From Chrysomallon squamiferum (Eukaryota > Animalia > Mollusca), in contig CM022676.1 in the NCBI GenBank assembly GCA_012295275.1, positions 7,688,001-7,752,000 of the forward strand: a stretch of DNA of 64,000 nucleotides, written 5' to 3'. Shown piece by piece: positions 4,429 to 59,327 of the stretch. A model generated the notes under the pieces. It saw only the letters and a program-made list of their open reading frames with translations, ran no database searches and was not told the DNA's origin. Every line of letters starts with the position of its first letter. Within the stretch, counting starts at the first letter, position 1. The position numbers and the translations under genes are program-made.

Positions 4429-4486
4429 ATGTGTTGTAAGTTATTCTGTGTGTTCGTGTTGCTGGGATGTGTATTGTACGTACAAG
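4429..4486 (+). CDS. Signal-peptide exon [19 protein letters not shown](G)
   Basis: ATG, hydrophobic core, g|gtatgt donor, 58 nt, phase 1. Confidence 0.75.
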
Positions 4487-7400
4487 GTATGTATTTTATA
4501 TTCAGATTATTTATCTGTATTTGAGTTAATGTAATTTAGTAACTGTGAAATCAGGGTTGAGTCGACTTTATGTATGGATGACAGTTATGACCCGGAAAGA
4601 ATAAAACTAGGATAAATAGTCCTAATTTCGTTAAAAGATTTATTACCTGTGTGACTGTAACAACAGGCAGATATTGTACCGCAGAACACATTAATACCGT
4701 GACTACATCATTACGTTTATAACGGAGTACATATTAATACAGTGAATTCATGATTACGTTGACAAGGCAGAACACATTAATACAGTGAATTGATGGTTAC
4801 GTTGATAACGCAGTACACATTAATACAGTGAATTGATGGTTACGTTGATAACTCAGAATACATTAATACAGTGAATTCATGATTAGGTTGATAACGCAGA
4901 AGAAATTAATTCAGTGAATTATTGGTTATGTTGATGGGATCACTTCATAAATACAATTATGATTTAATGACACTTGATTTCATACTGGCAATTAACTCTT
5001 GTATTCTATTCCTAACCAGCATAGTTTTAGACTTTCTCTGTATAATTTCTCTATATACTAAACATCAGAAGTTTCCTTTTTGACACAAAACGTTATATAG
5101 ATTAAACGGGAACGAAAAGAAATTACGATAATTTAAAGCAATGTTATGCACTATAGTATAATATGATACAATATGATATTATATGACATAATGTAGTGTA
5201 ATATAATTCAGTGTTAAGAAATCTATTTCACTGTAAAATAATATAATGTTACATAAAGAGTAGACTGCAATTCTTTATAATTATTGTACAGTTATAATAA
5301 GTGAGTATCGTGTATTAGTAATATATAATAATACAATAGAAGAAAATAATAACATTTATTTTATTTTATTTTATATTTTTATTGTATTTTTTATTGTATT
5401 TTTTATTATTTTTTTATTATCATTATTTACTATATTAAACTATACCACATTACATTTTACTGTGTTTTTTGCAGTGTTATTCTGTATTATACTAAATTTA
5501 ACTGCACTATAATGTACTAGACAATCGTGTACTCTGCTGTGTTATGCTATATTATTCTGAGCTATACTATACTACACTATACTTTACTATTCTATATTAT
5601 ACTATACTCTACTATAATGTTCACACTGTACTACAATATACTAAATTATACTATTGTGTATTAAATATATAGTGCTATACTGTACTGAATTATACTATAC
5701 TCAATATAGTGAAGTATTTTGTTCTATAAAGTTCTTTAGTACATAAGCATATTATAATCTGCTACGGTACATTGTTATATTATATATTATGTTATATGAC
5801 TTTATATTATATTATTACAATATAGGGGTTGGGTGCTGCATCGCAACACAAAGTTTATTCTGAAATTATCACCTGAGAACATTTCTGATTAATATAAATA
5901 TACAGGGAAACTGACACACACACACACACACACACACACACACACACACACACACATATAGAAAGATAAATAGACAGATTATACATATAGACAAATACGA
6001 ACAAACAAAACCACACATATACCTAACTACCTACCTACCTACATAATTACAAATATACGTCCATACAAACATAGACACATAAAGCTAATATACACACGTA
6101 CATACTTATCTACTTACATACGTACATATCTACATGCATGCATTAATACAAACATACCTAGAACGGAAAAAACCTTCGTAAGTACAAAAATACAAACGTA
6201 TAATAAAAAATAAAACAAATAAAACAAAAATAAAAAAACACATTTTCTGACGAAAATTCAGTATAAAAATACAACGCTGTATGTCATGTCTCAGAGCTGT
6301 ATTTAGGTTGCTCGATTCAGTCGACTGCGTCTAGTGTTTTGAAAAATATATTCAACCACCCGCAGAAAATCTTACAAATAATATTAACAGCAGTGAAAAC
6401 AAGAAAGTAGTGAAGAAAACATAATAAATTTAAAACTATATTTTTATTAGCGGAAAAATAATGATTTGTAATATATTCTGTGTGTTTGTGTTACTGGGAT
6501 TTGTATTGTACGTACAATGTATGTATTTTATATTCAGATTATTTATCTGTATCTAAGTTAACCTCATTGAGTAACTGTAAAATCCGGATGACTAATGGAA
6601 AATGAAATTTATAACTGTCAGCTAAACTCTTTAAATATATCTGCTAAAATCAGTTAAATGTAGCATATAGCCTAGCAAAAAAGTAATTATAAAAACAGAT
6701 AAAAACAAAAAAGTATTAATTTAATTTACATTAATTTAATTTAATTTAAATTGTTTATTTATTTTATTTTTTATTTTATTTTTTTTTTTTTTATTTTTTA
6801 TTTTATTTTTTTTTTTTTTTTATTTATCTTTATTTTACTTTATTTCTAATTTAAGGTCAGCATTATAAATTAAAAACATCAGGAAGATATGCAATTGTTG
6901 GATCACCTTTTACTTTTATCTGTCGAGGAAATGGTTCTTCTAAAATTACCTGGTTTGTGAATAACACAGAATACAGGATGGAAGTACAGGGAAAATACGG
7001 TCCCTTTGAATTTTTTGGTGAACATCCAAAAGAATACATGTTTTTCCGTTCAGATGATATAAACGTCGTCGTAATAAAATCTGTCAAACTCAGTCAACAA
7101 CGAACTGTGTGGAGATATGGAGATGATGGAGGACACAGCAATGAAGTAAGACTGGAAGTGAGAGGTAAAATTAACTTAATTATAATTAATATTTATTACT
7201 ATTATTGTAAGTACTAAATGCTGTTAAAAAAATGAATGAAACGAAAGTTGAATTGAGAAGTAAAATTAACTTCTTTATTATTAATACTATTATTATTCTT
7301 ATTAAATGTTGTTAAAAAAAAAAAAACGAAATAAAACTGAACGTGAGAAGAAAAAATATGTATTCTTAATGATAACTAAGTGATAAACTGAATAAAACAA

Positions 7401-57600: not shown

Positions 57601-59327
57601 AACCTCTTTCACACTTTTTACATTCGCGAGGTTAACTCTACGAGTTTTCTTTCTGCACACAAACTTGACAGCGCACACACACAATCTTTGTTTCCTTTCT
57701 TTGTCCAGTGTTTCGCCTCTGACAGCTGGATTCTTTCCCCTGTTTATTATCTAATTTGTTTAATTTTCTTTGATTAGCTTGATTAACATTCATACTGAAT
57801 TGTTTCTTAATTATAGCAAAATCTCTGCTAATTGGTATAATTATTTAATTTTAATCAGGCAAGATTTTTAGTTACTTATAAAACTGCTTACGTGAAGCAA
57901 TATCATTTGTTTTTCTTTAAATGTGTTTAATCATAATAAGATGCTTAATTATCCTTTTTTTGAAATAGCAAATGTTTAATTAGTTAAATTATAATATTTA
58001 CTTAATTAGCTATTTTAAAAACTTTTAGTTATAATAATAAGTACATAGGTAATTCTTTCAAAAACGTGATGAATATCGATAATATATCTAAATTAGATAT
58101 TCCCAAAAATTTGTTTAGTTAGTGTACAAGCACTTAATTTGCTATTCTTAAAATCTGTTTAAATAGTAAAACACACACTAAATCAGTTATTGTTAAAACT
58201 TTATGAATGTATGTAAGTAGGTAACTAGGTATGTATCTACTCACGTATCTGCAAACTACTTTCTATCGAGAAAGGTCAAAGTATTATATATATAAAAAAA
58301 AAAATTTTAGCCCACATAAAAAAATAAGAAACAAAAACGTGTATTGAATGTATTTACACTGTTGTTCGTACAATGACAAACCTCGATTGACAAAATAAAT
58401 CAAAATAATAATAATAATAATGTTGATGATGATGATGATGATGATGGTGATGATAACGATGATGATGATAATAATGATGATGATGATGATGATGATATTA
58501 AACGTTAAAATTACCTCTGACTTCCAGAATAATTTCATTACTTTTTTCAGTTCCTGATTTTGCACCACAGCTCCAAATGGTTCCTTGATGAGAGATTTTA
58601 ACTCGCTTTATTGTGAGTTGGAAAACGGATTGTGAACAGTTGAATATGTAGGCAGGATTGGGCTGGGGTGGAGTACATCGGCCGTTTTTGTCTACACGCA
58701 CGTTGTAGTGGATGTTGCTCTCAAACCACGTGACAGTGTTGTCGGCCACGTCTGTGGTACAGGTTAAGATAAAAGGAGAGTCAATGTTTCCATAGTAACG
58801 AGACGATTTCAAGTGATGTAGACCTAAATAAATAAAGAAATAAAGAAATAAATTTTAAAAAGTATTAACACAAATATATAAATAAGCGAATCTTCAAATA
58901 TATAAAAATATAAACAATTAACAAATATTAAATGGAATAATTAACGATGTAAATATACAAATAAATAAATATTAAGAAATTCAAATGTATTAATTATTTT
59001 TGTTCGTTTGTTTTTGTCGGTTTTGGTTCTTTCTTCGTAGTTGTTTTTCTCTGGGTTTTGGGGGGGTTTTGTTTTTTTTACTTGTTTTGTTTTTTCTTAT
59101 TGTTTTCTTATTGTTTTCTTTTGTCTCTTTCCTTTGATTATTTGGTTTGTTATTTTTAATTATTATTTTTATTTTTTCTTTCTTTCTTTAAATACTTCAC
59201 CCAGATTTTACAGTTACTAAAAGAGATTAACTCAGATAGAGATAAATAATCTGAATATAAAATACATACCTTGTACGTACAATACACATCCCAGTAACAC
59301 GAACACACAGAACAACGTACAACTCAT
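54683..59327 (-). CDS. Gene E: IgSF membrane protein, leader-V-C2-I-TM-short tail (~355 aa, spliced model)
   Basis: Exons 59327-59270, 58823-58515, 56863-56603, 55928-55665, 55420-55304 (TM VLVLFMAVVAGIFVLY), 54924-54891 and a tentative terminal exon 54707-54683. Phases are compatible; the last exon is uncertain (weak acceptor). Confidence 0.8.
55304..55420 (-). CDS. Gene E transmembrane exon
   Basis: 117 nt: CFPRRKKNIFLNIFDDTGKVLVLFMAVVAGIFVLYEIHQ. Confidence 0.75.
55665..55928 (-). CDS. Gene E third Ig (I-set) exon
   Basis: 264 nt: DQPSISF...LSCSADGNPKPTIKIMK...DAGDYTCEADNGVKSSVRKSLKLLVE. Confidence 0.92.
56603..56863 (-). CDS. Gene E second Ig exon
   Basis: 261 nt: DGPGSSVHLN...VSCAASCFVTCRYRWMFNG...HGVYTCVARN...INVV. 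Confidence 0.92.
58515..58823 (-). CDS. Gene E V-like Ig exon
   Basis: 309 nt: GLHHLKSSRYYGNIDSPFILTCTTDVADNTVTWFES...GRC...FNCS...GTIWSCGAKSGTEKSNEIILEVR. Confidence 0.9.
59270..59327 (-). CDS. Gene E signal-peptide exon [19 protein letters not shown]
   Basis: Same leader family as the + strand genes; ATG and donor intact. Confidence 0.85.

Follow-up and report, generated by a model that had tools for sequence, protein, structure and literature searches.

Does a cluster of immunoglobulin-superfamily (IgSF) genes in the mollusc Chrysomallon squamiferum encode receptors whose tails carry several ITAMs, one to an exon, and what might the additional copies do? We examined a window of 64,000 nucleotides (assembly GCA_012295275.1, contig CM022676.1, positions 7,688,001 to 7,752,000), meaning the whole stretch of DNA analysed; coordinates below are positions within it.

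Gene models and the cassette exons

A preliminary description of this locus reported four + strand paralogues spliced as leader-V-(C2)-TM-tail, and all four (A to D, Table 1) are borne out from sequence. It closed the + strand cluster at 59327, which is instead the start codon of an unmentioned minus-strand paralogue, E, whose short tail has a single terminal YTRL and no ITAM. The proposed splicing holds in the open models of A and D, where two small exons of 31 and 47 nt precede the first cassette, but not in B and C, which are frameshifted.

The predicted architecture is that of type I membrane proteins, with a leader, Ig exons and a 19-residue hydrophobic TM stretch (mean hydropathy 2.85), and each of the five models joins an Ig exon straight to the one encoding the TM. 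All eight Ig exons that were scanned gave Pfam Ig matches, though several fell short of the curated cut-offs, and none of the four cassette peptides scanned matched any Pfam entry. The assignment to IgSF receptors stands, as single-pass proteins with a first domain predicted to adopt the IgV fold. The modelled first domain of C (pLDDT 90.6) matches TCR, antibody and CD8 V domains, superposing on known V domains with Z 13.1 and rmsd 2.0 Å over 96 residues. The model of the D V domain is poor (pLDDT 59.5), which may reflect the alignment of isolated exons to full-length sequences; its exon contains a 33-nt internal duplication and encodes seven cysteines. The canonical Cys pair is retained in C, D and E, and its second member has been lost secondarily in B and in the degenerate V domain of A.

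Cassette exons are bordered by AG acceptors and GTAAGT donors, and any intron left unspliced would add Ser-Lys-stop straight away. The reported length of 99-105 nt and phase 1-1 hold for all ten internal cassettes of A and D (99, 102 or 105 nt), and every cassette length variant in the open genes is a multiple of three. The tail of D ends in four phase-1 exons of 99-125 nt, each with a whole YxxL-x8-YxxL, so that its four intact ITAMs are confirmed in an open frame with canonical splice sites. Both alternative reading frames of the spliced array in D are filled with stops. The terminal D cassette is a former internal cassette, extended through old intron sequence up to a stop. Gene A likewise matched its description: seven internal cassettes, five intact and two with Tyr2 changed to Cys, and a terminal exon stopped at Tyr1. 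Tyrosine loss thus affects 3 of the 12 cassettes of the open genes. The claim that most cassettes carry a whole motif was too generous, as the motif is intact in 10 of 18 modelled exons, nine of them in open frames.

The consensus YxxL/I-x6-8-YxxL/I occurs four times in the predicted cytoplasmic tail of D and five times in that of A. Shuffling produced the motif in 0.02-0.07% of 100,000 permutations per peptide for all three D cassettes tested. A comparison of 11 A and D cassettes left four invariant columns, of which ITAM residues occupy three (p 0.003, or p 0.03 once the stopped terminal exon of A is included). A microsatellite artefact was ruled out: the cassettes have complex sequence, lie between splice sites and share homology with the tails of Gigantopelta proteins described below.

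In B, the first small tail exon has 29 nt rather than 31 as in A and D, and the third cassette has 101 nt. The one intact ITAM attributed to B is present in the DNA, but lies out of frame behind this frameshift. In C, a one-base shortfall at the donor of the 308-nt V exon shifts the frame of everything downstream, both small tail exons are missing, and the first cassette has 107 nt; as described, its remnants hold no intact motif. Because B and C are frameshifted ahead of the cassettes, neither model carries an ITAM, and with these exon-length defects a phase of 1-1 throughout fails for both. The frameshifts adjoin or sit within short base runs and may be assembly errors.

RNA supports cassette-to-cassette splicing in a paralogue, in a comparison confined to 51820-53750. 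Contig 17 of RNA run X3 (500 nt, depth 3.4) contains four cassette-like pieces consecutively and with no intron between them, two joins falling exactly at acceptor 52403. Its two fully bounded units measure 87 and 105 nt, the joins are in frame, and it reads past the terminal cassette to 52551 (D coordinates). The source is a paralogue ~90% identical to D, seen in one of three RNA runs; a second run gave a single cassette piece with no join listed. Screening RNA runs for D itself returned no matching run, three runs from the same organism sharing 1-3% of D words. For the junction check proposed earlier, this gives cassette-to-cassette joins in one paralogue contig and no D match.

Table 1. Positions of the five paralogues and of stray copies in the window
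Feature	Position	Strand	Remarks
Broken E-type gene copy	300-2510	-	C2 exon frameshifted near 1231-1499; third Ig exon truncated
Gene A	4429-16793	+	open 442-aa model, eight cassettes, C2 exon absent
A leader exon	4429-4486	+	
A IgV exon	6856-7164	+	single Cys
A TM exon	8348-8464	+	
A small tail exons	8976-9006; 9376-9422	+	31 nt; 47 nt
A internal cassettes, motif intact, first four	11289-11393; 11730-11828; 12412-12513; 14050-14154	+	
A internal cassette, motif intact, fifth	14968-15066	+	
A internal cassettes, Tyr2 to Cys	14528-14632; 16089-16190	+	
A terminal cassette exon	from 16669	+	stop at Tyr1 codon
Gene B	19645-30116	+	probable pseudogene or short-tailed form; leader choice uncertain
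B IgV exon	22424-22735	+	no F-strand Cys
B C2 exon	23867-24127	+	
B TM exon	24814-24930	+	
B first small tail exon	25411-25439	+	29 nt, frameshift
B cassettes	26655-26759; 28278-28376; 29400-29500; terminal from 29992	+	second: motif intact, out of frame
Gene C	33354-39996	+	probable pseudogene; leader choice uncertain
C IgV exon	35680-35987	+	donor side short by one base
C C2 exon	36802-37062	+	
C TM exon	37749-37868	+	
C cassette remnants	38447-38553; ~38867-38943; 39908-39996	+	none with intact motif
Orphan IgV exon	43136-43472	-	inverted, frameshifted
Gene D	44577-52527	+	open 424-aa model, four ITAM exons; junctions all AG/GT, in phase
D leader exon	44577-44634	+	
D IgV exon	45062-45388	+	
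D IgC2 exon	46296-46556	+	
D TM exon	47390-47506	+	
D small tail exons	48122-48152; 48497-48543	+	31 nt; 47 nt
D cassette 1	49173-49277	+	105 nt; motif 49220-49267
D cassette 2	50037-50135	+	99 nt; motif 50078-50125
D cassette 3	51886-51990	+	105 nt; motif 51933-51980; paralogue RNA contig aligns here
D terminal cassette	52403-52527	+	motif 52450-52497; paralogue RNA contig joins at 52403
Gene E	54291-59327	-	open 359-aa model; tail-to-tail with D
E leader exon	59327-59270	-	
E IgV exon	58823-58515	-	
E C2 exon	56863-56603	-	
E I-type Ig exon	55928-55665	-	
E TM exon	55420-55304	-	
E tail exons	54924-54891; terminal 54327-54291	-	

In six-frame translation, hundreds of matches to the ITAM pattern arise from TA/TATC repeats.

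Relatives in Gigantopelta aegis

The sole close relatives found came from a vent snail, Gigantopelta aegis, and are called 'CEACAM1/5-like' in RefSeq (XP_041346676.1, XP_041372832.1, XP_041379697.1-700.1; LOC121386967), a name that is a mere best-hit label. All five matches of a V profile search were G. aegis proteins (E 1e-58 to 7e-22), and exon-wise tblastn and tail alignment found homology to this family in V, C2, TM and tail. The two sets share 43-46% identity in the V exon, a V-C2(-I)-TM order, a glycine-rich TM and collinear tails with YSSL-x8/9-YxxL, which P0003, P0004, P0006 and the P0010-P0012 locus contain exactly once apiece. From TM to first cassette, D is collinear with P0003 and shares both Tyr and both Leu with it; this alignment scored 112, compared with at most 48 in 1000 shuffles, and the tail by itself scored 58, compared with 49. 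Tail-only similarity to P0004 was weaker and was reached by 6 of 1000 shuffles. The G. aegis proteins differ in having one ITAM, a terminal YENV/YEDV site and usually more Ig domains, whereas the genes in the window have 4-8 cassette exons and lack that terminal site.

A cassette profile of nine sequences and 34 positions, short and of little power, matched none of 1.84 billion representative proteins; a search with the P0003 tail recovered P0003 and P0004 alone; the P0004 tail found nothing at 0.9 or above in the ESM Atlas; and the V profile gave two marginal matches among PDB sequences.

The N domain of vertebrate CEACAMs lacks a B-F disulfide, a trait not matched here, as C, D and E have both canonical cysteines. 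Mammalian ITAM CEACAMs (CEACAM3/4 and dog CEACAM23-30) resemble the snail genes in their IgV-IgC-TM-ITAM order and in forming fast-turnover clusters with pseudogenes, and their N-domain dN/dS is near or above 1; their single ITAM, however, is divided at the first YxxL by an intron of phase 0 (PMC2110893). The snail ITAM lies unsplit inside one phase 1-1 exon. We therefore rejected membership of the vertebrate CEACAM family, given the unsplit ITAM and the canonical cysteines.

The suggestion of a wholly new family is not supported, because ITAM-bearing Ig receptors are already described in oyster (PMC6994640) and Hydractinia (PMC9546547), and the family itself is annotated as CEACAM-like; a 'CEACAM5' family that may, going by its name, include these loci appears in G. 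aegis among the expanded, immunity-related families (PMC7895826). No repeated one-ITAM exon or such tails were described in the accessible literature, although subscription journals and supplements could hold multi-ITAM examples. At the level of sequence, what sets these genes apart is an ITAM exon copied four to eight times, compared with a single motif in the closest known relatives.

Proposed function of the repeated tail

The nearest tested mollusc receptor is CgIgR of the oyster Crassostrea gigas, whose motif is YTEL-x8-YEKL; it binds bacteria, dimerises, recruits CgSyk, activates ERK and promotes phagocytosis (PMC6994640). Both it and D are Ig receptors of molluscs that have ITAM sequence in their own chain, with x8 spacing and a Pro before the second Tyr; CgIgR differs in having five Ig domains and one ITAM. 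It was absent among the matches of our word-based homology search, which is of limited reach, and its domain count differs. The ITAM consensus is a true one, as previously claimed: it is kept in the Gigantopelta homologues, and its spacing is that of the Syk-binding CgIgR ITAM.

On balance we favour D, and possibly A, as a predicted single-pass IgV-IgC2 receptor, self-contained and activating, for immune or symbiont recognition with, in D, a four-ITAM tail that would recruit Syk once phosphorylated. By analogy, such a receptor most likely works like CgIgR, through ITAM, Syk and ERK. A ligand would cluster the receptor; its TM is rich in glycine and carries no charge, which hints at self-association and not at use of an adaptor chain. 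The Tyr pairs would be phosphorylated by a Src-family kinase and tandem-SH2 Syk would dock, leading to ERK signalling and phagocytosis as in the oyster. If CD3 zeta is a guide, additional ITAMs would make activation easier to trigger or the signal stronger.

CD3 zeta, an adaptor, has no Ig domain for ligand binding, and its pairing depends on a charged residue in the TM. The likeness lies in multiple tandem ITAMs in one chain; in the snail genes, ectodomain and four to five ITAMs share that chain, and there is no homology. With three ITAMs, CD3 zeta (CD247) is called the exception among ITAM subunits in a 2025 review, and the still open question of why immune receptors have more than one ITAM has been addressed almost exclusively on this chain (PMC12058738).

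Cassette number and alternative readings

All four G. aegis genes with in-frame tails have one collinear ITAM, and therefore the motif is old; its multiplication is, judging by this comparison, likely lineage-specific. The ancestral ITAM would have been contained in full within a single, symmetric exon of phase 1-1, so that tandem duplication of exon and intron could add ITAMs with the frame unbroken. Orthologous cassette types are retained in A and D, and at least four types would predate the A/D split, A having later duplicated a cassette block.

The rapid evolution proposed earlier is borne out as birth-and-death. V-exon dN/dS ranges from 0.6 to 2.2, and adaptive tuning of the cassettes is disfavoured by a pN/pS near 1 and by an exon identity barely above that of introns. 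The accompanying idea of an exon-counted signalling dose across A to D is not supported, given the frameshifts in B and C, the degenerate V of A and an overall cassette pN/pS of ~1.0. Decay accounts for part of the apparent 4/5/1/0 series, the reading frames of B and C being lost ahead of the cassettes, and we dropped it as a graded series.

We regard it as possible, though tentative, that a gastropod lineage independently evolved CD3-zeta-like ITAM multiplicity in ligand-binding receptors, with gene-to-gene copy number and exon skipping setting signal strength. If so, this V-domain family, with at least four ITAMs per chain, would be a natural test system for ITAM number. The exon is cleanly modular and therefore ITAM number can vary with context unchanged, and homologous receptors with one ITAM (Gigantopelta) and with four or more (here) would constitute an independent natural experiment.

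A less likely reading than the favoured one is that repeat number is a near-neutral by-product, with unequal crossing-over in an unstable cluster amplifying a frame-symmetric exon. One ITAM would suffice, as in Gigantopelta, and extra copies would decay like B and C; this is compatible with the Syk mechanism and denies only the importance of multiplication. A pN/pS near 1 and the near-equal identity of exons and adjacent introns (means 0.81 and 0.79, with the exon the more similar of the two in 25 of 45 pairs) are consistent with it, as are the frameshifted B and C, the degenerate A, 12 leader-like copies on the + strand besides orphan V exons, and a 5.3-kb block duplicated at 91% identity from the A tail end into the B tail end. 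However, D holds all four motifs despite 13-29% divergence between cassettes, invariant columns are enriched for motif residues, another four-cassette paralogue is expressed and spliced in frame, and both A and D keep orthologous cassette types.

It is improbable that the tail is inhibitory or switchable, its second half-sites (VPYDVL, VAYDIL) recruiting SHP/SHIP when singly phosphorylated and the array damping responses, for example towards symbionts. The ITIM consensus [ILVS]xYxx[LVI] has two matches in D and seven in A, overlapping ITAM half-sites, but it is loose and is absent from two of the four D cassettes. Gigantopelta tails likewise end in VTYENV, singly phosphorylated vertebrate ITAMs recruit SHP-1 (PMC12058738) and amphioxus SYK suppresses NF-kB (PMC13344425). 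Against this, both half-sites and their spacing of 7-9 residues are kept in all intact copies, also in Gigantopelta, as tandem-SH2 binding requires, and CgIgR, whose spacing is identical, acts as an activating receptor (PMC6994640).

Hydractinia Alr genes, too, are clustered V-domain IgSF genes with pseudogenes; ITAMs occur in 6 members regarded as bona fide and in 8 putative ones, ITIMs in two (PMC9546547). They differ in their Fn3-like spacer and divergent tails, the available text mentioning overlapping ITAMs rather than a repeated one-ITAM exon, and their allorecognition role is shown genetically (PMC9546547), a role that would be hypothetical for the snail cluster. The Fn3-like spacer between Ig domains and TM is absent in all five models. 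Gastropods are solitary, and we know of no fusion/rejection locus in them. An allorecognition or adhesion family of this kind, with E as ligand or counter-receptor of D, is very improbable and the role not supported, for although diverging V genes, pseudogenes and mixed tails cluster here as in the Alr complex (PMC9546547) and D and E, neighbours in tail-to-tail orientation, have contrasting tails, the spacer exon is missing and the nearest tested mollusc receptor binds bacteria (PMC6994640).

These genes also point to a signalling tail that has gone unnoticed in a family recorded as expanded in a vent snail with symbionts, which makes their products candidates for sensing microbes or symbionts through Syk.

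Gene models and splicing of the cassette exons

The DNA of the window is of animal type, rich in AT and microsatellites, and when all six frames were scanned for the ITAM pattern alone, simple repeats drowned the signal. Restricting the scan to frame-symmetric exons that lie between AG and GT and carry the motif recovered a clear cassette family, and comparison of the window with itself revealed a patchwork of tandem duplications. Models built exon by exon gave five paralogues, A to E. Gene D has ten exons in an open frame (424 aa) and four intact YxxL-x8-YxxL motifs in its tail, each in its own exon. 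The 442-aa frame of gene A is open as well, and five of its seven internal cassettes are intact; the gene lacks the C2 exon, has a single cysteine in its V domain, and its terminal exon stops at the first tyrosine codon. In gene B the frame shifts upstream of every cassette, within a tail exon of 29 nt whose counterpart in A and D measures 31 nt. Gene C shifts frame where its V exon ends; the two small tail exons are absent, and the cassettes no longer encode their tyrosines. Intact cassettes account for 10 of the 18 modelled exons, a count that leaves out one further C remnant, and nine of these 10 lie in an open frame. The cassette and motif counts of the preliminary description are correct at the DNA level; its claim that splicing reaches phase 1-1 cassettes in all four forward-strand genes is right for A and D and fails for B and C, where frameshifts precede the cassettes.

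Gene E, arranged tail-to-tail with D, is an intact family member without an ITAM. We take the YTRL of its tail to be a possible endocytosis or single-SH2 site, and E could be a counter-receptor or paired partner of D.

No RNA run containing gene D was found. Four same-organism sequencing runs (X1-X4) were aligned to window positions 51820-53750. In run X3, four successive cassette-like pieces stood on one contig of 500 nt at depth 3.4, and the last of them spans D's terminal exon and continues into the 3' region. The stretches between pieces (25, 5 and 29 letters) read as one cassette ending and another beginning; two joins coincide exactly with acceptor 52403, the two fully bounded units measure 87 and 105 nt, and the frame is kept. 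Since the contig is ~90% identical to the window, which has no 87-nt cassette, it represents another paralogue or a distant allele. Run X2 contained one cassette piece with no join listed, and X4 contained none. Run X1, of unrecorded kind, behaved like DNA; a spliced cassette form was absent among the joints listed (15 of 21), and a variant at one cassette position appeared in 37 contigs (not a copy count) compared with 19 cassette-like exons in the window, which suggests further cassette copies outside it. Support for cassette splicing is real but thin: one low-depth contig, cassette-to-cassette joins alone, and repeat units whose order could have been scrambled in assembly. We conclude that the cassette-ITAM receptors are real and partly expressed. 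Downstream of D, two short high-copy elements with unrelated flanks occur in many contigs of all four runs and are likely small dispersed repeats.

Positions of features (window-relative unless stated)
Feature	Positions	Strand	Remarks
Gene E	54291-59327	-	start 59327; V-C2-I-TM, three Ig domains, short tail ending in single YTRL
Further C cassette remnant	~38867-38943		
Terminal exon, gene A	16669-16793		
Terminal exon, gene B	29992-30116		
Half-ITAM cassettes, gene A	14528-14632, 16089-16190		
Leader-exon copies	4429, 6462, 17709, 19645, 20303, 21846, 31010, 32980, 33354, 35130, 42078, 44577	+	
Leader-exon copies, inverted	18178-18234, 31489-31545	-	fragments fused to partial V exons
43-bp tandem repeat	4680-4935, 20520-20897, 33570-34226, 42324-42451		
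High-copy elements	52730-52860, 52917-52990		
X3 contig pieces	76-152, 178-241, 247-322, 352-500		record positions; aligned to window 51820-53750

Relatives, domain folds and known systems

Of 6939 candidates, a V-exon profile search retained five proteins. Their labels read CEACAM-like or uncharacterised, and every one belongs to Gigantopelta aegis, a peltospirid vent snail, which makes a related gastropod the likely source of the window. When the search was widened, one more G. aegis protein and three distant proteins from Haliotis were recovered. An in-frame TM and tail are present at four of these six G. aegis loci, and two proteins stop before the TM. A single ITAM-like motif, YSSL-x8-YEGL or YSSL-x9-YDVL, occurs in each of the four tails, with a terminal YENV or YEDV downstream. 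The G. aegis protein P0003 is collinear with the stretch of D from the TM to the first cassette (score 112, best shuffle 48). Tail-only alignment with D scored 58 for P0003 (best shuffle 49) and a weaker 41 for P0004, reached by 6 of 1000 shuffles; Tyr and Leu positions are retained and most other tail residues differ.

Among RefSeq isoforms of one G. aegis locus (P0002, P0010-P0012), isoform X3 omits the TM segment in frame, a predicted soluble or cytosolic-tail form, and isoform X2 omits the first small tail segment, with a shifted tail frame and loss of the ITAM. Read from the protein sequences, these isoforms imply the same exon phases as in the window genes. The isoforms also hint that splicing may control signalling in the CEACAM-like family. 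The Haliotis cracherodii protein P0008 ('protein turtle homolog B-like') is an Ig/Fn3 receptor at 28% identity, with two ITAM-consensus motifs and further YxxL sites in its tail and no repeated cassette. Several motifs per tail are therefore not unique among gastropods, and P0008 suggests a broader, mis-named set of gastropod ITAM receptors.

All eight Ig exons scanned matched Pfam Ig families, the V exons weakly and under the cut-off; four cassette peptides had no Pfam match. The predicted fold of the gene C V exon (pLDDT 90.6, ten-sequence alignment) resembles TCR, antibody and CD8 V domains by Foldseek (VIA-align Z 13.1, rmsd 2.0 Å, 96 residues). In D the V exon, ~54% identical to that of C, encodes seven cysteines and includes an internal duplication of 33 nt; its model was poor (pLDDT 59.5), so its V fold is assumed from homology. 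The TM segments have a hydrophobic core without a charged residue and a glycine-rich motif common to homologues, which fits a receptor that would signal through its own tail.

We rejected identity with vertebrate CEACAMs, in which an intron interrupts the ITAM, and with Hydractinia Alr genes. Among the expanded families reported for G. aegis is one labelled CEACAM5, the available part of that paper not remarking on the tails (PMC7895826). As the accessible portions of published accounts describe, invertebrate ITAM-bearing Ig receptors are already known in oyster CgIgR and Hydractinia Alr (PMC9546547, bioRxiv 2022.03.25.485889; review, PMC11999971), and Botryllus FcoR has ITIM and hemITAM motifs (PMC12582321). 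A search of the open literature, outside closed journals and supplements, found neither a tail built as an array of whole-ITAM exons nor a ligand-binding chain with four to five full ITAMs; zeta, with three, is named as the exception in the available text of a 2025 review (PMC12058738).

Proposed signalling by the tails and selection on the cassettes

The nearest tested model for D is CgIgR, for which the accessible text reports bacterial binding, dimerisation, CgSyk recruitment, ERK phosphorylation and phagocytosis; it has five Ig domains and one ITAM, of the same x8 spacing as D (PMC6994640). By this analogy we lean slightly towards a similar route for D. Ligand would bring the receptors into clusters, a Src-type kinase would phosphorylate the clustered tails, Syk would dock at up to four sites per chain, and multiple docked Syk would amplify the output. 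The array can grow because the cassette exon is frame-symmetric. Retention of any cassette intron would end translation at once, and skipping of any cassette leaves the frame intact, so the number of ITAMs could be varied by splicing; such an isoform was not observed.

That the extra copies are neutral is rather unlikely, and the evidence for selection is equivocal. In its favour, length variants in the open genes are all multiples of three, and motif residues form three of four invariant columns (p 0.003; 11 full cassettes of A and D), or two of three with A's stopped terminal exon added (p 0.03). Against it, pairwise cassette pN/pS is 1.0 (12 cassettes, excluding B1 and the terminal exon of A), V-exon dN/dS ranges from 0.6 to 2.2 with few changes, and cassette exon identity is 0.81 versus 0.79 in the adjacent 100 intron bases (pairs not independent). 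Values near 1 are no proof of decay, as the N domains of dog ITAM-CEACAMs also give them, read as diversifying pressure in the part of that study available (PMC2110893).

An inhibitory or switchable tail is improbable, even though the second half-site also matches the ITIM consensus and, in the source texts available, singly phosphorylated ITAMs recruit SHP-1 (PMC12058738) and amphioxus SYK is inhibitory (PMC13344425). Allorecognition is very improbable.

Duplication history of the array

A tree of 17 cassettes with their flanks, leaving out C's terminal remnant, strongly supported D1 with A1/A5, A3 with A7/B3, and the terminal exons together, and placed D2 with A2/A6/B2 (support 92/94); deeper branches lacked resolution. 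These groupings make several cassette types older than the A/D split and, together with a 1.46-kb block duplication in A (94%), indicate that A duplicated a block of cassettes after it. A 5.3-kb segment at A's tail end is repeated at B's (91%); within it, the terminal exon of A matches that of B base for base, even in its stops, the product of a very recent duplication or conversion. Every terminal exon began as an internal cassette and now runs on into its old intron. Two A cassettes of different lineage share a Tyr-to-Cys change at the second tyrosine that leaves half-ITAMs, by parallel mutation or conversion and possibly as a shift to single-site signalling.

The 58-nt leader exon recurs in at least 14 copies in addition to that of E; several are intact and keep their ATG and donor. 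The copies far outnumber the genes and represent alternative first exons or duplication debris. A 43-bp tandem repeat (3 to 9 or more copies), a possible recombination or regulatory element, lies in the post-leader intron of several gene copies.
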